Of a stretch of 64,000 bases of DNA, positions 7,161-59,819 are shown in pieces. How positions within the stretch are numbered: the first letter of the stretch is position 1; each line of letters opens with the position of its first letter. Made by a program: the position numbers and the translations under genes. Origin of the DNA: an uncultured bacterium (lineage in GTDB: Bacteria; Actinomycetota; Acidimicrobiia; Spongiisociales; UBA4744); the NCBI GenBank assembly GCA_963827865.1, contig CAWHCO010000006.1:196579-260578 (forward strand), written 5' to 3'. The notes beneath the pieces are model-generated. The model saw only the letters and a list, made by a program, of their open reading frames with translations, ran no database searches and was not told the DNA's origin.

Positions 7161-7320
7161 CGTCGCCCTGGAGCCGACGGCTCACAGCTGACAGCCGGTC
7201 GCCGAGAGGTTGTTCTTGCTGTTAGCTGTTCGCTGTCGCCCTGGAGCCGACGGCTCACAGTTGACAGCTCACAGTCAGACGACGCGACACCGAGTTCTTG
7301 CTGTTGGCTGTTGGCTGTCC
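7161..7320. repeat. two tandem copies of a 74-86 bp intergenic unit between prfA and prmC
   Basis: TCGCCCTGGAGCCGACGGCTCACAG(C/T)TGACAGC occurs at 7162-7195 and 7236-7269. GTTCTTGCTGTT(A/G)GCTGTT(C/G)GCTG occurs at 7211-7234 and 7295-7319. Within each unit the ACAGCTGACAGC arm and the GCTGTTAGCTGT arm are imperfect inverted repeats with period-7 substructure. Confidence 0.85.
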
Positions 7321-8596: not shown

Positions 8597-9037
8597 CTAG
8601 ACAGGGATCACGTACGTGCCGGTGGCGTGGGCGACGAGAACCTCCGGGTCGGAGTCGGCGCGCATCCGCACCTCTCCGTACGCGGCCCGTCCCGAGAATC
8701 GCAGCAACGTGGCATGGGCGGTGACGTCGGTTCCAATGGCCGGGTGCAGGAAGCTCGTCGACAGTTCCGACGTGACGGCCATCGGTTCGATGCGACCGAG
8801 CGCACCGAAGACGGCGCAGTACAGGGTGGTGTCGGCCAACGCCATGAGCAGCGGTCCCGACACGTACTTGCCCGGTCGGATCCACAGGTCGTTGTACGGC
8901 CACCGAATCGTCGCCGTTCCATTACCCACCTCGGTGCAGACGAACCCCATGGTATCGGCGCTGGACATGGTGGTTCTGAGGAAGGTGGTGATCGACTCGG
9001 GGGTCATGGACGAAGCGTAGCGATGGGCTCGCGCCAC
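8597..9037 (-). CDS. PaaI/hotdog-fold thioesterase family protein
   Basis: ORF 8597..9037. Size and the pattern FLRTT..MGF..EVGNGTATIRWPY...GPLLMALADTTLYCAV...TSELSTSFLHP..G.V.A.A are typical of 4HBT/PaaI-like thioesterases. The start is GTG 9037 or ATG 9007. Confidence 0.6.
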   Translation of the reverse strand: MARAHRYASSMTPESITTFLRTTMSSADTMGFVCTEVGNGTATIRWPYNDLWIRPGKYVSGPLLMALADTTLYCAVFGALGRIEPMAVTSELSTSFLHPAIGTDVTAHATLLRFSGRAAYGEVRMRADSDPEVLVAHATGTYVIPV

Positions 9038-9039
9038 CT

Positions 9040-9387
9040 GTTGGTCCCCCCAGGAGCCCGAAGGGCTGCGTTGGTGGGAACGACCCCCTCCGGCGTCATG
9101 TTGGTCCCCCCAGCGTTGAGCGTTGGGGGGAAGGTACCGCAGCGGCGGAGCCGCTGGGGTAGGGGGTCCTAGCTACGTTGGTGAGAACCACCCCCTCCGT
9201 CCTCGGCTTCGCCGAGTCCACCTCCCCCAACACTCGCTTCGCTCGCGAGGGGAGGAAACAGCACCACCCCCTCCGGCGTCATGTTGGTCCCCCCAGCGTT
9301 GAGCGTTGGGGGGAAAGTACCGCAGCGGCGGAGCCGCTGGGGTAGGGGGGCGGTGCGATGACTGATGACTGAAGACTGAAGACTCAC
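9040..9387. repeat. cluster of modular GC-rich intergenic repeats (P and Q modules) plus a heptad array
   Basis: By-eye parsing, in order: P/Q fragments 9040-9099; P 9100-9166; Q in reverse orientation 9178-9259; Q fragment 9260-9282; P 9283-9350; GACTGAN x4 heptads 9360-9387. P = GTTGGTCCCCCCA-[variable loop]-TGGGGGGAARGTACCGCAGCGGC-GGA-GCCGCTGGGGTAGGGGG. Q (reverse) = GTTGGTGRGAAC..CCCCCTCCG-[short hairpin]-CCACCTCCCCCAACACTCGCTTCGCTCGCGAGGGGAGGAAAC. Confidence 0.85.
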
Positions 9388-9402
9388 TCCCGATGTGGTC
9401 AA

Positions 9403-10731
9403 ATGGCGCCTGTGAGCACGACCATCGGCATCTTCGATTCTGGGGTTGGCGGCCTCGCCGTGCTCGCAGAACTGGAACGCCTCGTGCCCGGCCACCCGAT
9501 GATCTACCTCGCCGACCAGGCGTGGATGCCCTACGGCGAACGGACCCTTCGCGAGGTGCGTGCCCGGTCTGAGGCGATGACCCGTCTGCTGCTCGACCGT
9601 GACGCCGGCGTCGTCGTGGTCGCCTGCAACAGCGCCTCGGCGGCAGCTCTGCGCCCGCTTCGCCGCACCTTTCCCGACATCCCGTTCGTCGGGATGGAAC
9701 CCGCCGTCAAGCCCGCTGCCGAGCAGACCGCCAAGGGGGTCATCGGTGTGCTCGCCACCAACGCGACCTTTCAGGGCGAGCTCTACGCGTCGGTCGTTGA
9801 CCGGCACGCGAGCGGAGTGTCGATCGTCGAGCAGGCGTGTCCGGGCCTGGCCATGGCCGTTGAGCGAGGTGACGCCGATGTTTCCAGGGCGCTCCTCGCC
9901 GAGTACCTGCCACCGCTCATCGACGGCGGCGCCGACACGGTGGTGCTCGGCTGCACCCACTACTCTTTCCTCGTTCCGCAGATCCGAGGGGCGATCGGAC
10001 CGGACGTGCGTGTGATCGACCCCGCACCCGCGGTGGCACGACAGGCACTCAGGCTCCTGCCGGGCCCGGTCCGATCAGACGGCCACACCGTGTATCTGAC
10101 CACCGGCGACCCGGCGGTGTTCTCCGCTCGGATACGGGAACTGCGTGGTGTCGCCATCGACCCGACCCACGTGACGATCTCCGAGCCGGCGACGATAGGC
10201 GACGCCGTCGATGCACTCCGGGCAGGGCTGGTCGTCGGCGTACCGACCGACACCGTGTACGGGATCGGTGTCGACCCGCGCAACCCGGACGCGGTCACCG
10301 CCCTCGCCGGCCTCAAGGGCCGTGCCTCGGATCGCCCGTTCCCCGTGCTGGCGGCGTCCATCGATCAGGCGCTCACGCTCGGCGCTTTCAACGACGCGGC
10401 ACGCAGGCTCGCCGCCGACCACTGGCCGGGTCCGCTCACCCTCGTCGTCACGGCGACGAGTGTGGTCCCCGGGGCCGAAGGGACGATCGGCCTGCGCGTC
10501 CCGGACCACCCGACCGCGCTCGCGCTCCTCGAAACCGCCGGTCCGCTCGCGGTGACCAGTGCCAATCTGAGCGGCGACGAGGAGACCCGGGACGACCGGC
10601 AGGCGAGGGCGATCTTCGGTGGGAAGGTCGCCGTCTACCTCGAAGGTCGCAGCCGCGGGGGCATCGCATCGACGGTGATCGACTGCACTGCAGCGAGCCC
10701 CGTCATCCTTCGCGCTGGACCTGTTGGTTGA
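9403..10731 (+). CDS. murI-tsaC: fusion protein: glutamate racemase (N-terminal about 265 aa) + YrdC/TsaC-type threonylcarbamoyl-AMP synthase domain (C-terminal about 175 aa)
   Basis: Single uninterrupted ORF 9403..10731. The N-terminal half has IGIFDSGVGGLAVL, VVACNSASAAAL and VLGCTHYSFL (both racemase Cys motifs). The C-terminal half has VVGVPTDTVYGIGVDP, LKGRASDRPFPVLAAS, HWPGPLTLVV, GLRVPDHP, AVTSANLSGDE and STVIDCT. Confidence 0.85.
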   Translation: MAPVSTTIGIFDSGVGGLAVLAELERLVPGHPMIYLADQAWMPYGERTLREVRARSEAMTRLLLDRDAGVVVVACNSASAAALRPLRRTFPDIPFVGMEPAVKPAAEQTAKGVIGVLATNATFQGELYASVVDRHASGVSIVEQACPGLAMAVERGDADVSRALLAEYLPPLIDGGADTVVLGCTHYSFLVPQIRGAIGPDVRVIDPAPAVARQALRLLPGPVRSDGHTVYLTTGDPAVFSARIRELRGVAIDPTHVTISEPATIGDAVDALRAGLVVGVPTDTVYGIGVDPRNPDAVTALAGLKGRASDRPFPVLAASIDQALTLGAFNDAARRLAADHWPGPLTLVVTATSVVPGAEGTIGLRVPDHPTALALLETAGPLAVTSANLSGDEETRDDRQARAIFGGKVAVYLEGRSRGGIASTVIDCTAASPVILRAGPVG

Positions 10732-12051: not shown

Positions 12052-12063
12052 CTTGCTTCGCAA

Positions 12064-12195
12064 ACAGCTGACAGCCCACAGCTGACAGCCTGTTTCCTCC
12101 CCTCGCGAGCGGAGCGAGTGTTGGGGGAGGTGGCCGAGGCGAAGCCGAGGACGGAGGGGGCCGTTCCCCCAACGCTCAACGCTGGGGGGACCAAC
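12064..12195. repeat. heptad array + Q module + P fragment downstream of glyA
   Basis: GCTGACA/GCCCACA/GCTGACA heptads at 12064-12090. Q (forward) GTTTCCTCCCCTCGCGAGCGGAGCGAGTGTTGGGGGAGGTGG... at 12092-12165. Reverse P fragment CCCCCAACGCTCAACGCTGGGGGGACCAAC ends at 12195. Confidence 0.8.
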
Positions 12196-28984: not shown

Positions 28985-28998
28985 GAGCCGGCTGCGCG

Positions 28999-29278
28999 AG
29001 CAGCTGACAGCGGACAGCCGACAGCCAGAGCGCGGCCGGGAACAACGCGAGGCGTCAGGGCGACCTCCTACCGAGAACCCAGAACCGAGAACTCAGAACC
29101 GACGGGCGAAGCCTGTCACCCGTTTCCTCCCCTCGGGGGGCCGCAGCCGAGTGTTGGGGGAGGTGGCGTCGAGCTGATGCTCGACGCCGGAGGGGGTGGT
29201 TCTCACCAACGAAGCCACAAGAAGCCCCCTACCCCAGCGGCTGCGCCGGCGGTTTTCGATTCTCAGTTCTCAGTCACG
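28999..29278. repeat. heptad arrays + Q module + P fragment downstream of the ABC-F gene
   Basis: GCTGACA/GCGGACA/GCCGACA heptads at 29003-29030. GAGAACC/CAGAACC/GAGAACT/CAGAACC at 29073-29100. Q (forward, inner hairpin GTCGAGC-TGAT-GCTCGAC) at 29122-29210. Reverse P fragment CCCCCTACCCCAGCGGCTGCGCCGGCGG at about 29224-29251. AGTTCTC heptads at 29258-29278. Confidence 0.8.
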
Positions 29279-32190: not shown

Positions 32191-32904
32191 GTGCATATTC
32201 CTGCCGGCATTGACGAGAGTAGATTCCCGGGGGTGAACCCGCTCGCCGACCTCGTCACGGCCGATCTCACGGCACGTGCCGACCCCGACAGAGCAGCGGA
32301 CATGGCCGCGTACATGAAGACCACGATGCCGTTCTACGGCGTCCAGGCAGGCGAACGGCGACAGATCCTTCGCCAAGCCCGGCGCCGGTTCCCGATCGAC
32401 TCGAGCGATGGGTACCGGGACACGGTGATCGCTCTGTGGGAGCGGCCCCACCGCGAAGAGAAGTACAGCGCCGTCGACCTCGCTGTCGACGAGAAGCGGT
32501 GGATCTCCATCGACCACCTGGACCTGTACCGGCGGTTGATCGTCGAGGGTGCCTGGTGGGACTTCGTCGATCTCGTCGCCGCCAAGCTGATCGGCCGGCT
32601 CCTCCTCGACGAGCCTGATCGCCTGTGGCCGATCCTCGACCGCTGGATCGACGGCGACGACATGTGGCTGCGCCGTACTGCCATCCTCGCCCAGCTCAAA
32701 CACAAGGACGCGACGAACGCCGACAAGCTGTTTGGGTACTGCCTGCGCCGTGCAGGCGAGACCGAGTTCTTCATCCGCAAGGCGATCGGGTGGGCACTCA
32801 GGGAGTACGCCAAAACCGACCGTGACGCCGTGCGAGGCTTCCTGGCCGATCACGGCGGGGAGCTGTCACCCCTGAGCTACCGGGAAGCGTCCAAGCATCT
32901 GTAG
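32191..32904 (+). CDS. DNA alkylation repair protein (AlkD-like HEAT-repeat family)
   Basis: ORF 32191..32904. ADPDRAADMAAYMKTTMPFYGV, WWDFVD, RRTAILAQL, FFIRKAIGWALREYAKTD. Confidence 0.7.
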   Translation: MHIPAGIDESRFPGVNPLADLVTADLTARADPDRAADMAAYMKTTMPFYGVQAGERRQILRQARRRFPIDSSDGYRDTVIALWERPHREEKYSAVDLAVDEKRWISIDHLDLYRRLIVEGAWWDFVDLVAAKLIGRLLLDEPDRLWPILDRWIDGDDMWLRRTAILAQLKHKDATNADKLFGYCLRRAGETEFFIRKAIGWALREYAKTDRDAVRGFLADHGGELSPLSYREASKHL

Positions 32905-32907
32905 GAG

Positions 32908-33018
32908 GTACGGCCCCCTCCGGCGTCGAGCATCAGCTCGACGCCACCTCCCCCAACAACCAGAAGCCCCTCCGTCCTCGGCTGCGCCTCGGCCGGCGGC
33001 CTCGCGAGGGGAGGAAAC
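32908..33018. repeat. Q-type module (reverse orientation, with insertion)
   Basis: GGCCCCCTCCGGCGTCGAGCATCAGCTCGACGCCACCTCCCCCAACAA...CCTCGCGAGGGGAGGAAAC. The inner hairpin is of the GTCGAGC/GCTCGAC subtype. Confidence 0.75.
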
Positions 33019-33072: not shown

Positions 33073-33237
33073 GTGAGAACAGACACCATCATGCTTGTTG
33101 GCGGGCTGGTGATCGCACTCGTGGCCGCGCTGCTGCTGTTCCTGGGTGTCATCGAGTCGGGTCCGGCCGCGCTCGTCGGGATCGTGGGCATCGGTCTGAT
33201 CGGCGGGTCGGTGCCGCTTCGAAACGCTCGCTCCTGA
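33073..33237 (+). CDS. candidate 54-aa membrane peptide (too short for the ORF track)
   Basis: My translation from GTG 33073 gives VRTDTIMLVGGLVIALVAALLLFLGVIESGPAALVGIVGIGLIGGSVPLRNARS, stop TGA 33235-33237. AAGGAGGG lies at 33061-33068. Two hydrophobic helices. Q repeats flank it on both sides. Confidence 0.4.
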   Translation: MRTDTIMLVGGLVIALVAALLLFLGVIESGPAALVGIVGIGLIGGSVPLRNARS

Positions 33238-33291: not shown

Positions 33292-33379
33292 GTTGGTGGG
33301 AACGGCCCCCTCCTCCGGCGTCGAGCGTCAGCTCGACGCCACCTCCCTCAACGTCGCTGCGCTCGTGGGGGAGGGAAAC
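33292..33379. repeat. Q-type module (reverse orientation)
   Basis: GTTGGTGGGAACGGCCCCCTCCTCCGGCGTCGAGCGTCAGCTCGACGCCACCTCCCTCAACGTCGCTGCGCTCGTGGGGGAGGGAAAC. Confidence 0.8.
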
Positions 33380-37750: not shown

Positions 37751-38778
37751 TCGATGTCGAGGGTGTCGGGGAAGATCGAGATCCACGGGATCCCTGGGGG
37801 AACGGTGAGAACGGACCCGTCCGGGCGTGCCAACTGGAACGTCTCGTCGATCGAATCGCGCGACCAGGTGCCTTCCTCGTACTCGCCGCCGTGGAACACC
37901 ACGACCTTGCCCGACCCGACCGTTTCCATGGCGGGCACGGCGGTGCCGGTCGACGGGGGGTGAGCGGTGTAGCGGTGCGCGAAGATCACGACGAGTGTGT
38001 CGGCGGAGATCTGGCCGGTGGTGCCGTCCTCGGCGACCCATTCGTGCGGTTTGCCGTCGGAGGTGCGGGTGTAGCGCTCGCCGTCCCACGTCCACACCGT
38101 CCGGGGCGACCAGTAGAGGGTGATCTTGTCAGAGGTGCCGTCAGGCTGGAGCGGGCCCCACTCGAACAGGTTCGGCGGCGGGTCGTCGGGGTACCCACGG
38201 TCGTCGGCGACCTGGCGGAGAGCGGTCGTGTCCCCGTACAGGTTGTGGGGCGCGGCTCGGGACGAGATGCGGAACATGCCGGGGCGAGAGTCGACGATCA
38301 TCGGGACGTCGTCCTTGCGGATGATGTCGAGCACCCACGATTGGGCGCCGCTGATCGCGAACGTCCCCCCGAGCGGCTTGACGAGTGTCGGGTCGGTTGG
38401 ACGGCCCGACCGAACGGGACCGAGATACGTCGAGTCGTTGACGTTGAAGAGAGCCATGAACCGGGTGATCCCTTCGACGGGGAGTTCGATGACGGCGTCC
38501 GCCTCCTGGATGCCCGACTCGGGTCGAGCGGCAGGGTGATTGTCGATCTTCACGGCGAGGACCCGCCGGTCGATGGTCGTCGGGTCGGTGACGGGCAGAC
38601 CGTTGAGTGGGGCGAGGACCACCGGTTCGGTTGTCGTCGTTGTCGGCTGGGTGGTGGTCGTCGTGGTGACGGTCGAGGTCGTGGCGGGCTGGGTCGTTGT
38701 CGTTGTGGTCGGCTCCGCCTTGCCAGAGCAGGCGGCCAGCAGGGCACACAAAGCACCGACGATGAGGAGGTGGCGCAT
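37744..38778 (-). CDS. DUF3048-domain lipoprotein
   Basis: ORF 37744..38778. Lipobox ALLAACSG, a poly-Thr linker, then PLNGLPVTD..RRVLAVKIDNHPAARPESGIQEADAVIELPVEGITRFMALF. Overlaps the amidase start by 7 nt. Confidence 0.8.
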   Translation of the reverse strand: MRHLLIVGALCALLAACSGKAEPTTTTTTQPATTSTVTTTTTTQPTTTTTEPVVLAPLNGLPVTDPTTIDRRVLAVKIDNHPAARPESGIQEADAVIELPVEGITRFMALFNVNDSTYLGPVRSGRPTDPTLVKPLGGTFAISGAQSWVLDIIRKDDVPMIVDSRPGMFRISSRAAPHNLYGDTTALRQVADDRGYPDDPPPNLFEWGPLQPDGTSDKITLYWSPRTVWTWDGERYTRTSDGKPHEWVAEDGTTGQISADTLVVIFAHRYTAHPPSTGTAVPAMETVGSGKVVVFHGGEYEEGTWSRDSIDETFQLARPDGSVLTVPPGIPWISIFPDTLDIEW

Positions 38779-38813: not shown

Positions 38814-39520
38814 AGGCTCGCTGCGCGAGCAGTCTTCAGTCTCCAATCGTGAGCCAACAGCCAGCAGCTCACAGTCGACAGCCAGAACGCGACCTTGATC
38901 ACCATGAGAGCACAGGCGTTGTGTTTCCTCCCCTCGCGAGCGCAGCGAGTGTTGGGGGAGGTGGACTCGACGCAGCCGAGGACGGAGGGGGCGGTGCCCA
39001 CCAACGTTGCTGGCTTACGGTCCCCTACCCCAGCGGCTTCGCCACTGCGGTACTTTCCCCCCAACGCTCGACCCTGCGGCCTCGCTGGGGGGACCAACGG
39101 GCTCGCCTGCGCGAGTGGTCTTCAGTCTTCAATCGTGAGCCAACAGCCAACAGCTCACAGTCGACAGCCAGAACGCGCTCTGGGTCGGCTCGAGACCGCG
39201 GGGCCTCTGTTTCCTCCCCTCGCGAGCGAAGCGAGTGTTGGGGGAGGTGGCCGAGGCGAAGCCGAGGACGGAGGGGGTCGTTCTCAGCAACGTTGCTGGC
39301 TTACGGCCCCCCTACCCCAGCGGCTTTGCCGCTGCGGTACTTTCCCCCCAACGCTCGGCCCTGCGGCCTCGCTGGGGGGACCAACAAACCCGACGCTCAA
39401 GTCATCAGTCGTGAGCCAACAGCCAACAGCTCACAGTCGACAGCCAGAACGCGCTCTGGGTCGGCTCGAGACCGCAGGGCGACCTTCTTACCGAGAACTG
39501 AGAACTGAGAACCGAGAGCT
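38814..39520. repeat. 2.5 tandem copies of a roughly 288-bp composite unit (heptad array + Q + reverse P), ending in a GAGAACT heptad array
   Basis: Unit A 38814-39097, unit B 39099-39385, partial unit C about 39411-39478. Each unit has three parts. First, GGCTCGC.TGCGCGAG..GTCTTCAGTCT.CAATCGTGAGCCAACAGCC..CAGCTCACAGTCGACAGCCAGAACGCG. Second, Q forward (38923-39005 and 39209-39290). Third, reverse P (39006-39097 and 39291-39385). GAGAACT x3-4 follows at 39493-39520. Confidence 0.85.
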
Positions 39521-39536
39521 GCGGGCGGAGCTTCTC

Positions 39537-40565: not shown

Positions 40566-41307
40566 CTCCTCCTTGAATCGAGTTGACCGTACCGCCCGGC
40601 CCCTCGAGGAACCCCCACAAGGCGCCCGGGGCAGGAACCGTCACGCTGTAGTAGTCACCGAACTCGTCGGATGTGATGTCGACGGCGTCCCCGTACGCGT
40701 CGCGCAGGTCTTGGGCAGTCGACCCGAGACCGATCCCCTCGGCCGTCGTGAGCCCCCAGAAGTCGAAGTCGTAGAGCACGTAGCTGTAGAAGAACAAGTG
40801 CTTGATTCCGAAGGCGGCCCACGGTGTCGCCGCATCGGTGTACACGGTGGTCAGGTTGGACCACTCGACGACCCGGATCTCGGTTCCTGGGCAGGGTCCG
40901 TAGACCTGGTTGCCCTGATCGTCGGTTGGGGGCACCCACCCCGTGTCGGAGACGGGTTCGCCCAGGTATCCCACGAGTGTGGTGATCGCCGACTCGGGAT
41001 CGGTGCCGAACGGGATCCCGTCGATGTTCTCCGGTCCGAGAATCAGCACGTCCGACGGGGGAATCGTGGTCGTCGTGGGAGTCGTGGTGGTGGTTGTGGA
41101 GGAGGAGGTCGTTGTTGTCGTTTCTGTTGTCGTGGTGGAGGACGAGGAGGTCGTCGACGGCGCGGTCGTGGTGGTCGCACCGGCTGACGCAGTGGTGGTC
41201 GTCGTGTCGGAAGTCTGGTTCACGAGCGCCAAGAGGCCCACGGCGACAAACACGAGTGCCACAGCTCCGGCGAGGATGGCGAGGATGCGCCGCTGGACGT
41301 CGGTCAC
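40549..41307 (-). CDS. hypothetical membrane-anchored exported protein with Thr/Ser-rich linker
   Basis: ORF 40549..41307. An N-terminal TM ([21 protein letters not shown]), an S/T tract of about 60 aa, then a globular C-terminal domain ending in GGVGCGE. Overlaps both neighbouring genes. Confidence 0.6.
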
Positions 41308-44024: not shown

Positions 44025-44157
44025 CGGCGCGGAGGCTACCAGGCGGTGTCCGCTCGCCCGGATGGATATGCGCTCTGCCGGGATTGTCGGCGTGGTGGGC
44101 CACCGGAGAACGTGAACTGCGGAGGTGCCTGCTGTGGGCGGTCGTGAGCGGGCTACG

Positions 44158-44364
44158 TTGCTGGGAACGACCCCCTCCGTCCTCGGCTCCGCCGAGTCCA
44201 CCTCCCCCAACACTCGCTTCGCTCGCGAGGGGAGGAAACAGGAACCGCCCCTTCCGTCCTCGGCTCCGCCGAGTCCACCTCCCCCAACACTCGCTTCGCT
44301 CGCGGGGGAGGAAACGGGAACGGCCTCCGCCGTTTTCGGTTCTCAGTTCTGGGTTCTCGGTAGG
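44158..44364. repeat. two tandem Q modules (reverse orientation) + heptad array
   Basis: Q at 44158-44239 and a 5'-truncated Q at 44241-44313, both ending CTCGCTTCGCTCGCG(A/G)GGGGAGGAAAC. CGGTTCT/CAGTTCT/GGGTTCT heptads at 44337-44364. Confidence 0.85.
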
Positions 44365-44441
44365 AAGCTCGCCCTGGCGAGCCGATCCACGGCGCTTTCT
44401 GGCTGGAGACTGGAGGAATCGGGGCGCACCACGGCCTGCGG

Positions 44442-46377: not shown

Positions 46378-46397
46378 CGGTGTGAGGCTAGGGCAGT

Positions 46398-46567
46398 GTT
46401 GGTCCCCCCAAGGAGCCCGCAGGGCGACGTTGGGGGGAAAGTACCGCATAAGCCGTCTGGGGTAGGGGGGTGGTGCGCGGGCTACGTTGGTGGGAACGGC
46501 CCCCTCCGTCCTCGGCTTCGCCTCGGCCACCTCCCCCAACACTCGCTTCGCTCGCGGGGGAGGAAAC
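46398..46567. repeat. P + reverse-Q composite (left copy of the pair bracketing the BMC region)
   Basis: GTTGGTCCCCCCAAGGAGCCCGCAGGGCGACGTTGGGGGGAAAGTACCGCATAAGCCGTCTGGGGTAGGGGGGTGGTGCGCGGGCTACGTTGGTGGGAACGG...CTCGCGGGGGAGGAAAC. It shares the private variant CGCATAAGCCGTCTGGGG with 52781-52950. Confidence 0.85.
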
Positions 46568-46589: not shown

Positions 46590-47297
46590 CTATCGCCCGC
46601 GGGTTCCCCAGCGGCGGACGAGGTAGAGCCAGAGTGGCCCGGGGTCGCGCTGCTCGATCGGGGGTTCCGGTACGGGTTCGGGCTCCGGCGCCGGTTCCGG
46701 CGGCGGCTGCTCGGCAGTCTCGAGTTGCGTCCGCAGATCACGGACTCGCTCCTTCAGGAAGTGCGCCTCGGTCTCGGCCTTGGCGGCCCGCTCTCGCGCA
46801 TCTGCGAGTTGCTGGCCCGCCTCGTGCAGGTTCCCCAATTGGTTGAGGAGGCGGCGCCACTCATCGATGGGTACGAGCATCGAGCCTTCCGGGACCGGTG
46901 GCGTGGGAGGCTGCGCCGCGGACACGCCACCGTCGCGAGGAGCCGGAGGCCCTTCGCCCGGATGTGTCGCCTGGGCAGGCGGCTCCTCGGCCGGTCGCTT
47001 CTTCTGTTTCGGTGGTTCGGCGGGCCGTTTCTTCTGTTTCTGTTTCTGCTTCTGTTTCTGCTTCTGTTTCTGCTTCGATGCTTCGGCTTCGGCGCGGGAC
47101 CGAGCCCGCTCCACGACCTCGGACCTGAGCACCACGCGCTCGTCGTCCACGAGTCTCGAACCAATCTTCTGTTTGCGAGCCCAGTTGCGGATCGTCTTGG
47201 CAGAAAGGCCGGTGATTTCGGCCGCGATGTCGAGTGTCACCCAGCTCCGTGGGGGCGGGGGAGCGGACGGGCTCTGCCAGACGAAGGCCGGATCCAT
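46590..47297 (-). CDS. excisionase/MerR-type HTH DNA-binding protein with (KQ)n repeat, Pro-rich tracts and a coiled-coil region
   Basis: In frame with ORF 46590..47330 (ATG 47297 or GTG 47330). HTH WVTLDIAAEITGLSAKTIRNWARKQKIG, then KQKQKQKQKQKQKKRPAEPPKQKKRPAEEP, then the helical segment LLNQLGNLHEAGQQLADARERAAKAETEAHFLKERVRDLRTQLE. Divergent from the BMC operon. Confidence 0.6.
   Translation of the reverse strand: MDPAFVWQSPSAPPPPRSWVTLDIAAEITGLSAKTIRNWARKQKIGSRLVDDERVVLRSEVVERARSRAEAEASKQKQKQKQKQKQKQKKRPAEPPKQKKRPAEEPPAQATHPGEGPPAPRDGGVSAAQPPTPPVPEGSMLVPIDEWRRLLNQLGNLHEAGQQLADARERAAKAETEAHFLKERVRDLRTQLETAEQPPPEPAPEPEPVPEPPIEQRDPGPLWLYLVRRWGTRGR
47034..47075. repeat. in-frame hexanucleotide microsatellite CTG(T/C)TT x7 inside the HTH gene
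   Basis: CTGTTT CTGTTT CTGCTT CTGTTT CTGCTT CTGTTT CTGCTT on the + strand, which encodes (KQ)7 on the coding strand. Confidence 0.9.
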
Positions 47298-47343: not shown

Positions 47344-47462
47344 GTACCTTGTACCTTGTACCTCGTGCCGTGCGCAGCCTGAACGGGTTCGACAGGCTCT
47401 GGCTGTCAGCTGTTTGCTGTTGGCTGTCAACTGTTTACTAATGACTGAAGACTGATGGCTGA
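47344..47462. repeat. heptad arrays in the divergent HTH/BMC intergenic region
   Basis: GTACCTT GTACCTT GTACCTC at 47344-47364. Then about 47398-47462 reads as period-7 units GGCTGTC AGCTGTT TGCTGTT GGCTGTC AACTGTT TACTAAT GACTGAA GACTGAT GGCTGAC. Confidence 0.75.
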
Positions 47463-47487: not shown

Positions 47488-48033
47488 ATGCCGTCAGAGT
47501 CGGAGGTTCGAGAACTCGTGCGCGCAGCCGTCGAGGCACTCCAGCCCGTATCTGAGAGCGGGTCTCGACCGGACGCCGCCTCGGACTCCATCGCTGTCGG
47601 GGCCGACCACGGAGGCTACCCGATGAAGGAGAAGATCGCCTTCCACCTCCGGGAGCGCGGCTTCGACGTACATGACTGCGGCACCGGCAGCGGCGACTCG
47701 GTCGACTACCCCGAGTTCGCCCACGCCGTCGCCCGGCTCGTCGCCGACGGGACGTGCCGGTTGGGGATCATCGTCGACGGGGCGGGAATCGGCTCTTGCA
47801 TGGTCGCCAACAAGGTCCCGGGGGTGCGAGCTGCCCTTTGCTACGACCTGTCGTCTGCTCGCAACAGCCGTGAGCACAACCACGCTAATGTCCTCACTCT
47901 GGGCGCCGGGCTGATCGGCACGAACCTCGCGCTCCAAATCGTCGACGAGTGGCTCGCCACCGACTGGGCCGGCGGACGACACGAACGACGGGTCGGGATG
48001 ATCGACGAGATCGATCGCAGGTATCGCACATGA
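47488..48033 (+). CDS. RpiB/LacAB-family sugar-phosphate isomerase, BMC-associated paralog with an N-terminal extension of about 32 aa
   Basis: ORF 47488..48033. The core is [61 protein letters not shown]. The N-terminal [34 protein letters not shown] has no counterpart in the second rpiB at 57396-57842. Confidence 0.88.
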
Positions 48034-48854
48034 CCAACGAGCAACTGATCGAGATCATCACCAAGCAGGTCCTCCAGCAGCTCACCACCCACGAGGACGA
48101 CTGCAACGGCGCCTGCGCGTACCACAGCCCCGATCAGGTCCGCGAGGTCGTCGCCACCGGAGCCAACCGGGTGTCCTATCGGGGGTCGGGCGCCGACGTA
48201 CCCCGGGACCTCGCCCGCTACATCGATCACACGCTCCTCAAGCCCGACGCGACGTCGGCCGACATCGACCGGCTGTGCACGGAGGCGTCCGAGTACGGGT
48301 TCGCCGCCGTGTGTGTCAACCCCTACTGGGTCAAGCGGTGCGCGAAGAACCTACGCGGCACATCGGTCAAGATCGCATCCGTTATCGGCTTCCCGCTCGG
48401 CGCTACGCCATCGGAGATCAAGGCGTTCGAAGCGCGCAGAGTCATCCGGGACGGCGCAACAGAAATCGACATGGTGATCAACATCGGGGCGCTCCGCTCG
48501 GGCGACTACGACCTCGTTCGCGACGACATCGCCAAGGTGTCGGACGCATGCCACGAGTCGGGTGCGCTGAACAAGGTGATCATCGAGGCGGCTCTGTTGA
48601 CCGACGAGGAGAAGGTCATCGCCTCGGCGCTCGCGAGGGAAGGCAGAGCCGACTACGTGAAGACATCCACCGGGTTCGCGTCGAGTGGAGCGACGGTCCA
48701 CGACGTGCTCCTCATGAGAGAGACCGTCGGGCCCAAGATGGGTGTGAAAGCGGCCGGCGGTATCCACACCGCCGAGGATGTTCGGGATATGGTGGCCGCC
48801 GGTGCGACGAGGATCGGCGCGTCGGCAGGCGTACAGATCGTGACGGGAGAGTGA
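48030..48854 (+). CDS. deoC: deoxyribose-phosphate aldolase (DeoC family), BMC-associated, with an N-terminal extension of about 60 aa
   Basis: In frame with ORF 47949..48854. ATG 48030 overlaps the isomerase stop (ATGA). The core is [64 protein letters not shown] (Schiff-base Lys)..VKAAGGI. The extension begins [20 protein letters not shown]. Confidence 0.9.
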
Positions 48855-48858
48855 TCCG

Positions 48859-49485
48859 GTGAGTGACGTCGAACTGAGGAGCTACGCATTCCTGGACAGT
48901 CTCCAGCCCCAGTACGCCGCGTTCCTCGGAACCGTCGCTCAGGGGTTCCTGCCACTCGCCGGAGACGCGTCGCTGTACATCGAGATCTCCCCCGGCATCG
49001 AGATCAACCGTCTCACCGACGTGGCGTTGAAGTCGACGAGGGTCAAGCCCGGCATGCAGGTTGTCGAGCGGTACTACGGCGTGCTCGAGATTCACTCGCC
49101 AGAGCAGGCGGAGACCCGTGCCGCGGGAGCGGCGATCCTCCACGATCTGGGCCTCGCGGAGACCGACCGTCTCAAGCCGAAGATCCTGTCGAGTCAGATC
49201 ATCCGGCGGATCGACGACCACCAGGCGCAGCTCATCAACCGAACCCGGCATGGACAGATGATCATCCCGGGCCAGACCCTCTACGTGATGGAGGTCGAGC
49301 CGGCGGCGTACGCGCCACTTGCCGCCAACGAAGCGGAGAAAGCAGCGGACATCAATGTGCTCGAGGTTCGGGCGTTCGGTTCGATGGGCCGTATCTACCT
49401 CGGTGGTGAGGAACGGGACATCGACGTCGGGTGGCGTGCGGCGATAGCCGCCATCGAAGGTGTCGAAGGACGAGAAACGAAGTAG
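48859..49485 (+). CDS. BMC-T shell protein, permuted tandem-BMC-domain type (resembles the double-stacking BMC-T2/T3 of Haliangium ochraceum as I recall them)
   Basis: ORF 48859..49485 (GTG). [74 protein letters not shown], and a second domain [45 protein letters not shown]. Confidence 0.8.
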
Positions 49486-49502
49486 AAGAGAGGAGACAGC
49501 CG

Positions 49503-49805
49503 ATGGCTGAAGCGTTGGGGATGATCGAGGCTCGTGGTTTCGCGGCGATGGTCGAAGCGGCCGACGCGATGGTGAAGGCTGCCAAGGTCGAGCTGGTGAG
49601 CTACGAGAAGACCGGTGGCGGCTACGTCACGGCGATCGTTCGTGGAGACGTGGCGGCCGTCAAGGCCGCGATCGAAGCAGGCGTACGGAACGCGGAGAAG
49701 GTCGGCGAAGTCATCGCGACTCACGTCATCGCCCGCCCGCACACGAACGTCGACCTGGTGCTGCCCCTTGGCCGCGCCGAGGAGGCACAGGCCGAAACCT
49801 CCTGA
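49503..49805 (+). CDS. BMC-H shell protein (PduA/CcmK-like hexamer)
   Basis: In frame with ORF 49431..49805. ATG 49503 follows [67 protein letters not shown]. Confidence 0.95.
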
Positions 49806-49816
49806 GAGGAGACGAC

Positions 49817-50104
49817 ATGCTCCTAGCGCGAGTCGCCGGGACGCTCGTCGCCACCAGAAAGGAGCCCAGCATGTCCGGGCTCAAGTTCCTGGTGCTGCGA
49901 CAGCTCGATGTCGACGACACCGAGACGGGCGGCTACGTCGTCGCAGCCGACGCCGTCGGTGCCGGCGTCGGCGAGATCGTCCTCTACGCGACGGGCAGCT
50001 CGGCACGCCAAACCGAACTCACCAACAACCGACCCTGTGACGCGGTCGTCATGGCGATTGTCGACACCTGGGAGGTCGGCGGGGAAGAGAAGTACCACAA
50101 GTGA
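49817..50104 (+). CDS. BMC-P vertex protein (EutN/CcmL family), copy 1
   Basis: ORF 49817..50104. [61 protein letters not shown]. Close in pattern to E. coli EutN. Confidence 0.92.
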
Positions 50105-51555
50105 TCGATCAGGCCGAGATCCAAGAGATCATCGAGCGGGTCCGGAAGAAGCTCGGCGAGGCCGGCGAGTCCGTCGGCGCGGGGCTACGTGGCAGCACGG
50201 CTCTGGAAGCGATCGCTCCGGCCGACCTTGGCGAAGGCATCTATCCGACCGTCGATGAAGCAGTCGCCGCAGCCAGACGGGCGTTCGAAGCGTACCGGTC
50301 GGTTGGACTCGAGGGTCGCAAGACGATCATCAGCGCCGTGCGCGCCTCGATGCTCCAGCACGGAGAACAGCTCGCCGAGATGGCCCACGCCGAGACGGGA
50401 CTCGGTCGAGTCGAGGACAAGATCGTCAAGAACCGGATCGTCACGACGAAGGCACCCGGCCCCGAGGATCTTGAGCTGGAGGCAGCCACAGGCGATCTCG
50501 GCATGGTCGTCACCGAGTTCGCCCCCTACGGGGTGATCGGGTCGATCACCCCCACGACGAACCCGACGTCGACCATCATCAACAACACCATCTCGATCGT
50601 CTCGGCGGGCAACGCGCTCGTCTTCAACGTGCACCCGAGCGCCAAGCGCGTCTCGGCCGAAAACGTCCGACTCATCAACAGGGCGATCGTCGCCGCTGGT
50701 GGCCCACCCGACCTGGTCGCCGCCATCCCCAACCCGACGATCGCCTCGGCGAAAGAGCTGATGGTGCACCCGGACGTCCCGGTGCTGCTCGTGACCGGAG
50801 GCGGGGGAGTGGTCAAAGAGGCGATGCGCACCGACAAACGCGTCGTTGCCGCTGGGCCGGGCAACCCTCCGACCGTTGTCGACCAGACCGCCGACCTCGA
50901 CAAGGCCGCCCGCGACATCGTGCTCGGAGCGTCGTTCGACAACAACATCGTCTGCATCGACGAGAAGACGGTGATCGCCATCGACACCATCGCCGACTCG
51001 CTGGTCAGGAAGATGGCGGACCAGGGCGCCTACGTCCTGAAGGGGCACGAGCTACGCCGGATAGAACGGGTCGTGTTCTCCGAGCTGGGACCACCGAACA
51101 AACCCGGGGTCATCAACAAAGAGTGGATCGGCAAGAACGCAGGGGCGATTCTCGCCGAGATCGGCGTGCAGGTGGGCCCGGAAGTCCGTTTGGCCGTGGC
51201 CGAGGTCGCGATAGAACACAGCCTGGTGTGGACCGAGCAGATGTTGCCGGTGCTGCCGGTCGTCCGGGTTCCGGACGTCGACCGGGCGATCGATCTTGCG
51301 GTGCGGTCCGAACATCGTTTCCGCCACACTGCATCGATCCACTCGACCAACGTTGAAACCATCACCCGCATGGCCAGAGCGATGGACTGCTCGATCTTCG
51401 TGGCGAACGGTCCCCACTACGCGGGACTGGGAGAAGGCGGTGAAGGGTTCGCATCCTTCTCGATCGCCAGCCCGACCGGCGACGGGCTGACTCGACCCCG
51501 GACCTTCTCTCGTGAACGGCGCATCACCGTTGTCGGTGCACTGAGGATCGTGTGA
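50101..51555 (+). CDS. CoA-acylating aldehyde dehydrogenase (EutE/PduP-like), with an N-terminal amphipathic helix
   Basis: ORF 50101..51555 (GTG, overlapping the BMC-P stop as GTGA). [24 protein letters not shown], catalytic Cys in [11 protein letters not shown]. The N-terminus is [20 protein letters not shown]. Confidence 0.9.
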
Positions 51556-52124
51556 TGCGGCCGGCGCTCGCGTTGCTCGAGTTCGACTCGATCGCCCGTG
51601 GAATCGAGGCAGGCGACCAGATGGTCAAGCGTGCGCCCGTCGAAGTGCTCCGCGCAGGAACGGTCCAGCCCGGCAAGTACCTCGTGCTGATCGCCGGCGA
51701 GGTCGGCGACGTCGAGGAGGCTGTCGACGCAGGCAAGGCGATCGCCACGCTGATCGATCTGGTCCTGCTCCCGGATATCCATCCGGATGTGACCGCCGCC
51801 GTCCGAGGTGCTCGCAGGGCGGGTGAGGGCGAGGCGCTGGGGGTCATCGAGACTCGGACCGTCGCCGCCGTCATCCAGGCAGCCGACGCGGGCGTCAAGG
51901 GAGCGAAGGTGACGCTCCAGGAGATCCGCCTCGCCGACGGCCTCGGCGGCAAGGGCTACCTGCTGTTCCAAGGTCCCGTGGCCGAGGTGGAGGCCGCAGT
52001 CGAGATCGGCTCGGCGAGCGTTCCGGAGCGGGTGATCTCCGTGGTCATCCCGCAGCTCCACCCGGAGATGGGCGACAACCTGTCGGCCGACGGGCGGTTC
52101 TCCGAACGGGTCGGCGAGGAGTAG
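51552..52124 (+). CDS. BMC-T shell protein, tandem canonical BMC domains (PduT-like)
   Basis: ORF 51552..52124. Domain 1 is ALALLEFDSIARGIEAGDQMVKRAPVEVL..GKYLVLIAGEVGDVEEAVDAG. Domain 2 is ALGVIETRTVAAVIQAADAGVKGAKVTLQEIRLADGLGGKGYLLFQGPVAEVEAAVEIG. Confidence 0.9.
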   Translation: MMRPALALLEFDSIARGIEAGDQMVKRAPVEVLRAGTVQPGKYLVLIAGEVGDVEEAVDAGKAIATLIDLVLLPDIHPDVTAAVRGARRAGEGEALGVIETRTVAAVIQAADAGVKGAKVTLQEIRLADGLGGKGYLLFQGPVAEVEAAVEIGSASVPERVISVVIPQLHPEMGDNLSADGRFSERVGEE

Positions 52125-52126
52125 CG

Positions 52127-52393
52127 GTGCAACTCGGGCGTGTCGTCGGAACGGTCGTGGCCACGGTCAAGACGCCAGGGCTGGAAGGCGTCAAGTTCCT
52201 CATCGTCCAGCCACTGGACCGCCGCCAAGAGCCGAACGGGAGGCCGGTGGTCGCCGCAGACGGGGTGCACATGGCCGGACCGGGCGAACTCGTGTACATC
52301 GTCGGGTCCCGAGAGGCCGCCCAGGCACTGCCGAACACGTTCGTACCCGTGGACCATGCGATCGTCGGGATCGTCGACCAGGTGAGCTCGTGA
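52127..52393 (+). CDS. BMC-P vertex protein (EutN/CcmL family), copy 2
   Basis: ORF 52127..52393. MQLGRVVGTVVATVKTPGLEGVKFLIVQPLD..VVAADGVHMAGPGELVYIVGSREA..HAIVGIVD. Confidence 0.9.
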   Translation: MQLGRVVGTVVATVKTPGLEGVKFLIVQPLDRRQEPNGRPVVAADGVHMAGPGELVYIVGSREAAQALPNTFVPVDHAIVGIVDQVSS

Positions 52394-52662
52394 AGGTCGG
52401 GACCGTGGTCGGTACGGTCGTCTCGACGATCAGCTCGCCGGTGTTCGACGGCCGGAAGCTGCTCCTCTGTGACCTCCTCGACGCGGATGGCAACCCGGAA
52501 GGCGGGTACCTGATCGCCGTGGATGTCGTCGATGCAGGCGTCGGGGAGAAAGTACTCATCCTCGACGAAGGCAATTCCGCACGCCAGATCGTCGGTTTGG
52601 ACACGGCCCCGATCAGGGCCGTCGTGGTGGGAATCGTTGACGAGACAACGATGGACAGCTGA
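52390..52662 (+). CDS. BMC-P vertex protein (EutN/CcmL family), copy 3
   Basis: ORF 52390..52662 (GTGA overlap). MKVGTVVGTVVSTISSPVFDGRKLLLCDLLD..LIAVDVVDAGVGEKVLILDEGNSARQ..RAVVVGIVD. Confidence 0.9.
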   Translation: MKVGTVVGTVVSTISSPVFDGRKLLLCDLLDADGNPEGGYLIAVDVVDAGVGEKVLILDEGNSARQIVGLDTAPIRAVVVGIVDETTMDS

Positions 52663-52996
52663 CAAGCGACAGCCGACAGCTGACAGCTAACAGCCAACGG
52701 CCAACAGCCTCTGGCACCTCCCCAGTCGGGTCCTTGCTGTTCGCCGTGAGCCGTCCCCCCCAGCGTTGAGCGTTGGGCTTGTTGGTCCCCCCCAGGAGCC
52801 CGGGGGGCGACGTTGGGGGAAAGTACGCATAAGCCGTCTGGGGTAGGGGGGCGGTGCGCGGGCTCTGTTGGTGGGAACGGACCCATCCGTCCTCGGCTTT
52901 CAGCCGAGTCCACCTCCCCCAACACTCGCTTCGCTCGCGGGGGAGGAGACAGATCCGCACCCCCCAACACTCGGCCTTCGGCCCAGGGGAGGAAAC
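52654..52996. repeat. heptad array + P/reverse-Q composite (right copy of the bracketing pair) + extra Q fragment
   Basis: Eight heptads GACAGCT GACAAGC GACAGCC GACAGCT GACAGCT AACAGCC AACGGCC AACAGCC at 52654-52709, starting in the last codons of the BMC-P gene. P fragment at 52751-52780. P at 52781-52851 and reverse Q at 52867-52950, about 90 percent identical by eye to 46398-46567. Fragment ...CCCCCAACACTCGGCCTTCGGCCCAGGGGAGGAAAC ends at 52996. Confidence 0.85.
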
Positions 52997-53028
52997 GCGA
53001 GCTCAGGTCTTGACAAAGCGACACCAAC

Positions 53029-54551: not shown

Positions 54552-55449
54552 CTGCAGATCCGCCGAGCAGCACCACACCGATGAACGCCAAGAGCGCCTG
54601 ATCTCCTCCGCAGCGACTCTCGCTGCACAGCAAACCGTCACTCTCCCAACTGCCGATGAGCGATGCCAGCGTGCTCGCCGGTTGCTCGGCCGACACGGTT
54701 GTCGTCGTTGTCGTGGGGAACGCCGCGGCCGATGCCGTCGTCGACGTCGTAGTCGTCGAAGCGGTTGTTGTGACAGGTCCGGTCGTCTCGGTCGTTGACG
54801 TGCTCGTGGTCGGTGTACCCGTCGTGGTTGGCGCCTGGGTCGGAGTGGTCGTGGGTGGTGGTGGGGCTGTCGTGGTCGACGTAGAGGTTGTTGTCGTCGG
54901 GTGCGTGGTCGTTGTCGTCGGTGGGGGAGCGGTGGTCGTGGTCGGTGGTGGGGCCGTGGTGGTCGTGGTGGTGGCTGGAGCGTTCTGTCTCTGGAGGAAG
55001 ACGTCGGTGGTCCATATCACCGAGTTCTCGTCTATGTAGACGCCGATCCCCGCGTACTGATATACCGGATCCAGGAGGTTCTCACGGTGCGAGGACGACG
55101 CCCAGAATGCGTCGAACAGCGCATCACACGAGCCTCCGACACCGACGTTCTCGCCCCACTGCATCCAATCATCGGGGAGGTAGGGCGCGAGGTCGTCCGT
55201 CGACGAGTGATAGATGCTGCCGTGCTCGTGCATCGCCTTCGAGTGGGTGCGAGCGTACTCGGTGAGTGTCGAGTTCGTGGTGAGTGTCGGTGTCCTGTTT
55301 GCCACTCGTGCGGCGTTGATCTTGGCAAGAAAGCACGTCTCGGCATCAGAGGTCGCATCGGCCAGCGCGGGCTGCGCAACCAAGATGGTTGCGGCCATGG
55401 CCCATACGAAGATCAACCCAATTGCTCGGGTTCGGTGCCTAGTGTTCAC
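54526..55449 (-). CDS. CAP/SCP-domain exported protein with a long Thr/Pro linker and a C-terminal membrane anchor
   Basis: ORF 54526..55449. Signal IGLIFVWAMAATILVAQPALA. CAP-like HSKAMHEHGSIYHS..WGENVG..HRENLLDPVYQYAGIGV. About 110 aa of T/P-rich sequence. C-terminal LLAFIGVVLLGGSAV. The 3' end overlaps the MFS gene by 26 nt. Confidence 0.7.
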   Translation of the reverse strand: MNTRHRTRAIGLIFVWAMAATILVAQPALADATSDAETCFLAKINAARVANRTPTLTTNSTLTEYARTHSKAMHEHGSIYHSSTDDLAPYLPDDWMQWGENVGVGGSCDALFDAFWASSSHRENLLDPVYQYAGIGVYIDENSVIWTTDVFLQRQNAPATTTTTTAPPPTTTTAPPPTTTTTHPTTTTSTSTTTAPPPPTTTPTQAPTTTGTPTTSTSTTETTGPVTTTASTTTTSTTASAAAFPTTTTTTVSAEQPASTLASLIGSWESDGLLCSESRCGGDQALLAFIGVVLLGGSAVTTWSLRG

Positions 55450-57244: not shown

Positions 57245-57393
57245 CTCGCTTCGCTCGCGGGGGAGGAAACGGGTGGCGACTTTGCTCGCCGTACTCGGTT
57301 CTCGGTTGTCGGTTCTCGGTAGGACACTCGCCCCATAGTCGTTGAACGCGTCCAGGCCGCGTTCCGACTGAAGACTGAAGACTGAAGACTGTC
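57245..57393. repeat. Q fragment + two heptad arrays between convergent genes
   Basis: CTCGCTTCGCTCGCGGGGGAGGAAAC at 57245-57270. CGGTTCT/CGGTTGT/CGGTTCT/CGGTAGG at 57296-57323. GACTGAA x3 + GACTGTC at 57366-57393. Confidence 0.8.
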
Positions 57394-59758: not shown

Positions 59759-59777
59759 CGGCTCGCTGTTCTTGCAG

Positions 59778-59819
59778 TCGACAGCCAACAGCTGACAGCT
59801 GACAGCTGACAGCAAGAAG
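59778..59819. repeat. heptad array GTCGACA GCCAACA GCTGACA x3 GCAAGAA
   Basis: Read directly from the sequence. Three perfect GCTGACA units lie at 59792-59812, flanked by degenerate units. Confidence 0.85.

Follow-up and report, generated by a model that had tools for sequence, protein, structure and literature searches.

The closest described counterparts of P and Q, two structured repeats found at 11 intergenic loci in a 64-kb stretch of DNA from an uncultured bacterium of the class Acidimicrobiia (contig CAWHCO010000006.1, positions 196,579 to 260,578; hereafter the window), are the BoxC/PIT/TM_ECO elements and the CGTC-tagged repetitive extragenic palindromes (REPs). BoxC/PIT/TM_ECO elements follow the pattern CCCTCNCCC-N3-6-GGGNGAGGG-N3-GGGNGAGGG (Holder et al., 2015; PMC4666352) and number 3610 copies in 262 proteobacterial genomes (PMC4666352 and work cited there). 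A class II intrastrand purine-motif triplex has a 5' pyrimidine domain, a purine domain, and a 3' reverse-Hoogsteen (mirror) purine domain (PMC4666352). TM_ECO forms a triplex in vitro, as seen by circular dichroism and nuclear magnetic resonance, and DNA polymerase is blocked in vitro (PMC4666352 and work cited there). PIT/BoxC elements have no promoter or terminator activity and no relation to gene orientation, and they are associated with rearranged loci (PMC4666352 and work cited there). Purine-motif triplexes do not form in RNA, and published motif searches limited the loops to 1–6 nt (ITxF) or 0–10 nt (Hoyne et al., 2000) (PMC4666352).

CGTC-tagged REPs (Di Nocera et al., 2013; PMC3733652) include dRS3 of Neisseria and RPE-4/6 of Rickettsia, and have no associated transposase. 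They occupy gaps between genes of the same direction and convergent gaps, and rarely divergent ones. One end of the palindrome carries CGTC (or TGTC/CCTC), and a short unpaired tail is mostly CCA. The stem has 8–9 bp with complementary A/T in its first two positions and the loop has 4–5 nt; the five phyla listed do not include Actinobacteria (PMC3733652). The similar gene distribution of CGTC- and GTAG-tagged REPs has been read as a sign of RNA function (PMC3733652). That paper makes no mention of conserved runs flanking the hairpin, and a search of its supplements for such runs was negative. In a 2025 REP survey, Acidimicrobium appears only in a table.

Organization of the Repeat Family

Copies of P and Q were called with nhmmer profiles made from the window copies, with all filters off. 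The profiles recovered all 11 loci listed in an earlier reading made from the letters of the window (hereafter the sequence-only reading) and returned nothing unrelated in the 64 kb. The census comprises 10 full Q copies (about 84 nt each), six full P copies (about 70 nt each), and about 10 fragments. Together, the 11 loci cover 1694 nt, or 2.6% of the window; the earlier figure was roughly 3 percent. The recurrence is also evident from pattern counts. In the window, GTTGGGGGAGGTGG-N15-30-GGAGGGGG, the Q-core pattern, matches eight times and GTTGGTCCCCCCA-N8-30-TGGGGGGA, the P pattern, five times, with 0.00 expected from shuffles in both cases. A search of the 64 kb against Rfam, one of the checks that had been proposed, gave no match at the gathering threshold, and with E values up to 10 the segment 38800–39500 gave only chance-level microRNA and small nucleolar RNA hits. 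A literature search with the core sequence as text returned only unrelated papers.

P and Q had been regarded as two separate modules; here, they are reinterpreted as a single unit that occurs in two versions, inverted relative to each other and always with P before Q. This order is constant on any one strand among the window copies called by nhmmer. In alignments of the composites and single copies, P in the forward direction and Q in the reverse direction show one shared plan. On the purine-rich strand, the unit consists of GTT, a pyrimidine run (Y1), an inner hairpin, a second GTT, a purine run (R1), a linker, a second hairpin, another linker, and a final purine run (R2). R1 is the complement of Y1, and R2 is the mirror of R1. 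The three runs Y1/R1/R2 are CCTCCCC/GGGGGAGG/GGAGGGGG in Q and TCCCCCCA/TGGGGGGA/AGGGGGG in P, and the linker after R1 is TGG in Q and AAAGTACC in P. P and Q of some lineages have a literally identical first stem-loop (CAGGAGCGAAGCGACGTTGGGGG). A common element of 175 nt consists of P plus inverted Q around a linker containing GTTGGTGGGAAC. Given the shared plan and the shared CAGGAGCGAAGCGACGTTGGGGG, this element is an inverted pair of paralogous units, and P and Q are paralogous copies of one unit.

Mirror Relation of the Purine Runs

In both versions of the unit, R2 is R1 read backward rather than its complement, and P and Q follow the class II order of pyrimidine, purine, and mirror purine on one strand. 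Seven to eight triads can be drawn in eight of the 10 full Q copies and in five of the six full P copies, which fits the class II stem criterion (6–15 nt with at most one mismatch). Degenerate R2 runs occur in the copies at 33292 and 52867 and in the tandem copy 44241–44315.

The relation was also found in other sequences. A degenerate pattern had 134 matches on viral and metagenome contigs. Among the matches with Y1 upstream, 81 were exact mirrors, eight were one base off, and none was a direct, non-mirror copy, whereas matches lacking Y1 had scattered run combinations. The R1/R2 pairs accompanied by Y1 were GGGGGAGG/GGAGGGGG (69 matches), GGGAGAGG/GGAGAGGG (11), GGAGAAGG/GGAAGAGG (one), and the one-off variant GGGGAAGG/GGAAGAGG (five). 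The P type, which was not selected by any search pattern, has 18 mirror copies and no direct copy. Where R1 has changed from G to A, the change is accompanied by C to T in Y1 and by G to A in R2 at the mirror position. The third run family lies on contigs of 40–47% G+C and has A/T-rich hairpins. In these comparisons, the Y1/R1/R2 relation is kept in four sequence families and across several phyla (Acidimicrobiia, Caulobacterales, Sphingomonadales, Longimicrobium, Acidobacteriota, and low-GC metagenome contigs). A G-quadruplex reading was ruled out, as the GGGAGAGG and GGAGAAGG families keep the architecture without G tracts. The CCTCTCCC/GGGAGAGG/GGAGAGGG family was seen on metagenome and viral contigs L113/L130, L157, L187, L208, and L237, with a right arm ending in CCCTCTCAGTCGCCTGCGGCGACAGCTCTCCCAGAGGGAGAGCC and a hairpin in the second loop.

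These features invite comparison with BoxC/PIT/TM_ECO. Both have the same three-domain order on one strand with a mirror run of 7–9 nt, and both are intergenic, multicopy, present in both orientations regardless of gene direction, and tied to local rearrangement. The BoxC triads CCCTCTCCC/GGGAGAGGG/GGGTGAGGG are almost matched by the CCTCTCCC/GGGAGAGG/GGAGAGGG family. However, BoxC loops have 3–6 nt, whereas those of P and Q are hairpins of 17–30 nt. In the window, loop 1 has 11–23 nt and loop 2 about 20–30 nt, which is outside the limits of ITxF and of Hoyne et al. (2000), and the runs are also not those of TM_ECO. Because the published search was limited to loops of 1–6 nt, elements with hairpin loops would have been missed. 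P and Q further differ from BoxC in their occurrence in Actinomycetota, their run sequences, their arrangement as inverted P-Q pairs, and in that the triplex is here predicted from sequence alone. A BoxC-like 36-mer has a median of 18 sites per Escherichia coli genome.

Hairpin Covariation and Strand Asymmetry

An RNAalifold analysis of 63 Q copies from the window, Acidimicrobiia, and other loci recovered the second hairpin, with five pairs showing 5–29 double changes each. When pairs were counted on a structure specified by the analyst, 84% of the cells were paired and 128 were compensatory, where cells represent sequences rather than events and subfamilies have common founders. Column shuffles gave 41 compensatory cells (none of 500 was as high), and a slid partner gave 22–42. 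These results bear out the sequence-only reading of this hairpin (there called the inner Q hairpin), which had noted two versions that both pair and had suggested conservation of structure over sequence. The run stem CCTCCCC/GGGGAGG is 96% paired; it is nearly invariant and thus uninformative either way. Among the window and L001–L112, the segment between R1 and R2 has 98 distinct versions, nearly all of which are hairpins (mean, seven pairs).

The second hairpin differs between its two strands. On the purine-rich strand, 40 of the 98 versions have GNA triloops (GAA, GCA, GGA, or GTA), compared with two of the complementary TNC type. G.T pairs number 32 on this strand and 12 on the other, and the purine-rich strand gives the better fold in 76 of the 98 versions. 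The sense strand of P has the same asymmetry, with GGA, GAA, and AAA loops and T.G wobbles in three copies. Minihairpins of the type d(GCGNAGC) are unusually stable in DNA. The window copies have fold z-scores of -2 to -5.7; for the P copy at 9098–9167, z is -5.7 as RNA and -6.5 as DNA. Predicted DNA folds give the same hairpins and leave R2 unpaired.

The second hairpin of Q, taken on its pyrimidine-rich strand, has the tag and tail of the CGTC-tagged REPs, in the order CGTC-stem-loop-stem-(T)CCA. Eight Q copies have CCGTC-CTCGGC..., three have CCGG-CGTC-GAGC with the tag inside the stem, and the CCA(CC) tail follows the hairpin in at least 90% of the 63 aligned copies. The two groups also share their gene-context distribution, and no transposase is known for either. 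In contrast to those REPs, the window stems have 6–10 bp, are GC-rich, and lack A/T in the first positions, the loops have 3–4 nt, and P has no CGTC tag. Stems that begin with A/T are present in the relatives from Caulobacterales, Sphingomonadales, and low-GC bacteria (e.g., L022, L211, and L214). The sequence-only reading did not recognize the family; however, the plan corresponds to class II triplex motifs (PMC4666352) and the Q hairpin to the tag and tail of CGTC-tagged REPs (PMC3733652).

Gene Context

All P and Q copies are non-coding, as had been proposed, and the long open reading frames (ORFs) that overlap them are false N-terminal extensions. The true starts are MKRHILVAV at 44024 for metG and MADRRLW at 46377 for the EamA gene. 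Most window copies lie 0–150 nt past stop codons. The earlier description of the placement as mostly operon ends and convergent gaps holds for some copies, but the 9040–9350 cluster is between divergent genes, and the copies at 38923–39387, 44156–44315, 46397–46567, and 52751–52996 are in same-direction gaps. Among 129 core matches in the window and L001–L109, 29 were in convergent, 40 in same-direction, and seven in divergent gaps, counts that depend on a crude gene caller based on G+C at third codon positions. Orientation relative to flanking transcription was mapped as suggested earlier: of the 40 matches in same-direction gaps, 21 have the purine-rich strand as the mRNA-side strand and 19 have the pyrimidine-rich strand there. 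The copies thus avoid divergent promoter regions and are indifferent to the direction of transcription. A bias toward one replication strand was rejected, as each strand of the window carries eight full units under a uniform GC skew.

Occurrence in Other Genomes and Turnover

Scanning the Q core over one genome per species gave at least 109 loci (L001–L109), in at least five phyla. Among the matches listed, about 45 are from Acidimicrobiia and other Actinomycetota, about 38 from Caulobacterales, about nine from Sphingomonadales, four from Longimicrobium, and three from Acidobacteriota, and a few are single or spurious. The alphaproteobacterial form is built of two units without an inner hairpin, which together make an imperfect palindrome of 130 nt (L009, 5533–5662); the L009 copy showed no GANTC site. 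On plasmids, this form was found only on Sphingomonas and Sphingobium megaplasmids, where it is unannotated.

Copies differ between related genomes, a comparison that had been proposed as a check. The orthologous gap of L030 lacks the whole block 52751–53009 and keeps the heptamer arrays on either flank as well as the downstream TTGACA. Past the hydrolase gene, L030 has Q+P+Q and the window a 26-nt Q fragment (57245–57270). Past the gene ending at 42260, L016 has P+Q and the window has neither. Downstream of glyA, the more distant relative L032 carries Q in the opposite orientation.

Proposed Folding and Spread

On balance, P and Q may be best explained as a DNA-level, REP/BIME-like mosaic family (BIME, bacterial interspersed mosaic element), in which a BoxC-type triplex frame has hairpins for loops and the units spread as non-autonomous DNA by a single-strand route; the case for this explanation is slightly better than even. 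Opening of the duplex by replication or supercoiling would free the purine-rich strand, which could then fold into two hairpins, with R2 lying back on the Y1:R1 stem. Such a structure would correspond to the class II purine-motif intrastrand triplex shown in vitro for E. coli BoxC/TM_ECO. From the order and mirror relation of the runs, we infer this fold for P and Q. The elements would spread as non-autonomous DNA by a single-strand route and persist where harm is small, mainly 3' of genes. Effects on transcript ends or on local rearrangement would be secondary.

Several points weigh against this explanation. Concerning the fold, the loops of P and Q (17–30-nt hairpins) are far longer than those of any characterized intrastrand triplex, and the tail of P can pair conventionally with CCCCCTCC of Q, which gives a competing long-hairpin fold. 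The patterns used to collect relatives had fixed GTT, TGG, and AC and limited the runs to GGRRRRGG. The four run families may also share ancestry, in which case the events would be few. The context counts inherit the crudeness of the gene caller. Concerning the spread, loci are stable within the species (contigs of 99.6–99.97% identity, with one single-nucleotide difference in P), and no clean pair of empty and filled sites was found in three orthologous comparisons. The junctions in those comparisons are too divergent or lie at a contig edge, so that the element ends and target are not fixed. Target-site duplications are absent at five full P-Q composites, whose flanks have in common just a T ahead of GTT and an R following AAC. 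Finally, no enzyme for spread was found. Given the lack of an enzyme, a duplication, or a clean site pair, the mobility is deduced only from polymorphism between species of 85–90% identity.

A selected role in RNA, in which transcribed 3' hairpins end transcription or shield mRNA from 3' exonucleases as proposed for REP/BIME, is unlikely. The position of most window copies shortly past stop codons, the excess of convergent and same-direction gaps over divergent ones (69 vs. 7), the stable folds, and the asymmetry compatible with G.U pairing all agree with such a role, as does the RNA function read from the like distribution of CGTC/GTAG REPs (PMC3733652). However, the 21 vs. 19 split shows no orientation bias relative to the upstream gene, and one cluster (9040–9350) lies between divergent genes. 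No U tract was found 3' of the hairpins, and the sole terminator-like match in 8900–9500 (stem 9262–9278, minus strand, inside the cluster) is within shuffle expectation. PIT/BoxC elements likewise lack terminator activity. RNA does not form purine-motif triplexes (PMC4666352), and the RNA reading therefore leaves the mirror relation of R1 and R2 unexplained; both this relation and the lack of orientation bias weaken that reading.

The REP/BIME-like behavior noted by the sequence-only reading is supported for this modular, structured, non-coding intergenic family. Similar to REP/BIME and REPIN-RAYT systems, P and Q are GC-rich palindromes that occur in mosaic clusters, singly or as inverted pairs, are extragenic and variable among relatives, and keep pairing while the sequence is free. 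They differ in the absence of a GTAG tag, in that no REP-associated tyrosine transposase (RAYT) was found, and in units of 70–85 nt with three structural parts. These comparisons bear on the idea that the inverted P-Q pair is moved REPIN-like, as single-stranded DNA in a cut-and-paste manner, by a single-copy RAYT encoded elsewhere, which is distinctly unlikely. In favor of this idea are the arrangement of two hairpin units in inverted orientation on either side of a spacer, a strand asymmetry of the loops that fits recognition of one strand, the presence or absence of copies between relatives, and the GGGTAGGGG within P. Conversely, no stem is preceded by GTAG on its 5' side, and the RAYT-type motif (Y..NP.RA) was not found in six frames of about 750 kb of related DNA (the window and L001–L112), although this is weak evidence because RAYTs are single copy. 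Furthermore, the CGTC-tagged REPs, which the Q hairpin resembles, are reported without an associated transposase (PMC3733652), and the full units show no bias with respect to GC skew (eight each way in the window).

[quoted passage not shown] As internally deleted insertion sequences moved by a DDE transposase that recognizes terminal inverted repeats, P and Q would resemble Correia, ERIC, and RUP in size (80–180 nt), abundance, intergenic position, and occurrence in both orientations, and their ends share GTT...AAC. Nevertheless, this origin is very improbable, since the ends and the missing duplications do not fit: the ends are alike only in GTT and a C run, which is a weak terminal inverted repeat, and the five full composites lack target-site duplications. 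In addition, no parent insertion sequence is seen, no transposase is encoded among the window ORFs (as the sequence-only reading had stated), the P-Q composite had no match in the plasmid search, and single, truncated, and reshuffled modules are common, unlike in MITEs. An integron attC-like reading (GTTRRRY/RYYYAAC) was also rejected, as the ends do not fit and no cassette arrays are present. Lastly, chance low-complexity G/C runs or an assembly artifact, which a GC-rich genome (65%) and repeats that break assemblies might suggest, have practically no probability and are refuted by the same loci in three independent assemblies, in line with the zero matches predicted by shuffles and the related copies in many genomes; the repeats are real.

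Copies and Associated Features in the Window

The sequence at 9040–9350 is as the sequence-only reading gave it. This cluster (+ strand) begins with a P fragment limited to the first stem-loop (9039–9083; P profile positions 2–49, E=5.6e-7) fused to a Q 5' fragment (9069–9097; Q profile positions 2–30, E=1.7e-4). A full P follows at 9098–9167, with Y1 TCCCCCCA, R1 TGGGGGGA, hairpin CAGCGGC-GGA-GCCGCTG, and R2 TAGGGGG, and then a full Q at 9176–9259 (purine-rich sense strand, minus) with CCTCCCC, GGGGGAGG, hairpin CTCGGC-GAA-GCCGAG, and GGAGGGGG. The final segment (9263–9350), a Q 5' fragment plus the full P at 9281–9350, duplicates what precedes this Q. The duplication of about 85 nt on either side of Q, as noted earlier, measures 87 nt (9080–9166 and 9263–9349; 98% identity).

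Past glyA, a full Q (12092–12172) and a P first stem-loop fragment (12164–12195) lie on the minus strand, 40 nt past the stop codon. The minus-strand copies in the convergent gap at 29122–29253 are a full Q (29122–29211) and a P 3' fragment (29225–29253). This Q carries the long hairpin version GGCGTCGAGC-TGAT-GCTCGACGCC, and inverted heptamer arrays flank the locus. Two partial Q copies on the plus strand (32903–32958 and 32967–33018) begin at the stop codon of a DNA-alkylation-repair gene, and a full plus-strand Q with the degenerate runs R1 GAGGGAGG and R2 GGAGGAGG follows at 33292–33379. Between these Q copies is a hydrophobic 48-codon ORF (33091–33237, +) with a GGAGG ribosome site, which is below the 100-amino-acid limit of the ORF list.

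Two minus-strand P-Q composites, with Q at 38923–39006 and P at 39021–39098, and with Q at 39209–39292 and P at 39307–39387, belong to the first and second copies of a 286-bp unit (heptamer array, Q, and P). This unit is repeated 2.3 times in tandem at 38821–39480 with 85–97% identity, between luciferase-like and DUF3048 genes. A plus-strand tandem pair of a full Q (44156–44239) and a Q without the 5' GTTGGTGGGAAC (44241–44315) lies upstream of where metG truly starts, at a distance of about 130 nt; the tandem repeat spans 44164–44333 with a period of 77 nt and 2.2 copies. The plus-strand composite of P (46397–46470) and Q (46485–46567) takes up the greater part of the 212 nt that separate the HTH gene stop codon (46590) from the EamA start (46377). 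At 52751–52996 (+), a P fragment (52751–52778) is followed by a full P (52779–52851), a Q with degenerate R2 (52867–52950), and a Q 3' fragment (52961–52995). The last copy, the Q 3' fragment at 57245–57270 (+), is 12 nt past the hydrolase stop codon.

The intergenic DNA also contains some 20 short tandem arrays whose units (RACAGCY, its complement GCTGTTR, SAGAACY/GTTCTCR, and GACTGAA) recur every 7 nt. They include those at 7162–7320, 9352–9385, 12052–12090, 28996–29110, 29252–29275, 38838–38885, 39124–39170, 39400–39521, 44328–44374, 47344–47462, 52654–52755, 57287–57391, and 59766–59813. The arrays are often inverted pairs just past stop codons, which could form long imperfect hairpins. 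They keep their position in L030 where P and Q are absent, and adjoin Q copies in other Acidimicrobiia metagenome-assembled genomes (MAGs). They are reminiscent of the STRR heptamers of cyanobacteria. Unrelated to P and Q are GTCGTGGTGGTC-type low-complexity repeats within minus-strand ORFs of several genes (38633–38712, 41054–41205, 54701–54999, and 56219–56340).

The window has about 65% G+C and contains chromosomal housekeeping genes, including a murI/Sua5-like ORF, glyA, an ATP synthase operon, a GH57 enzyme gene, metG, and a microcompartment locus. Parts of it are 85–91% identical to contigs L030 and L016 from uncultured Acidimicrobiia MAGs. Contigs L110–L112, from two NCBI assemblies and one Logan assembly, are 99.6–99.97% identical to the window and have the same P and Q loci. 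By these identities, the source belongs to the Acidimicrobiia. The 442-aa ORF at 9403–10731 (+) may be a murI-tsaC-type fusion, with an Asp/Glu racemase domain at residues 24–215 and a Sua5/YciO/YrdC domain at residues 271–439. The microcompartment locus (47488–52662; also in L110) encodes RpiB, DeoC, a CsoS1D-like shell protein, BMC, EutN, an aldehyde dehydrogenase, BMC, EutN, and EutN, and is a sugar-phosphate type bacterial microcompartment locus in an Acidimicrobiia genome. A TTCTGY hexamer repeat in the HTH-domain gene contains a 12-nt indel (47038–47049), the sole length difference between the window and the same-species contig L110 over 6.8 kb.

Implications

The family is abundant and undescribed as such, and it is a variant of two known kinds of repeats (REP/BIME-like and BoxC-like), not a new category. 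P and Q fuse two designs, the BoxC triplex motif and the CGTC-tagged REP, and bring them to Actinomycetota; both BoxC and the CGTC-tagged REPs are abundant and old, with no known function or means of spread. MAG contigs often start or stop inside P or Q (L012, L016, L089, and L110, which starts at window position 46493), indicating that the repeats break short-read assemblies. A model of P and Q would therefore help the annotation of Acidimicrobiia genomes, in which copies also give false N-terminal extensions such as those of metG and EamA.

More tentatively, P and Q and their relatives in Caulobacterales, Sphingomonadales, Longimicrobium, Acidobacteriota, and low-GC bacteria might constitute one cross-phylum superfamily, in which a REP hairpin serves as the triplex loop and which would unite BoxC/PIT with the CGTC-tagged REPs, although this is doubtful. 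If so, selection on triplex folding itself in living bacteria would gain its first comparative evidence from the joint change of Y1, R1, and R2 (C.G*G becoming T.A*A at mirror positions), and a factor that reads or makes the fold would be implied. The four run families and about 100 hairpin versions constitute a natural mutational series, which can be used to test whether the three-stranded fold is selected.

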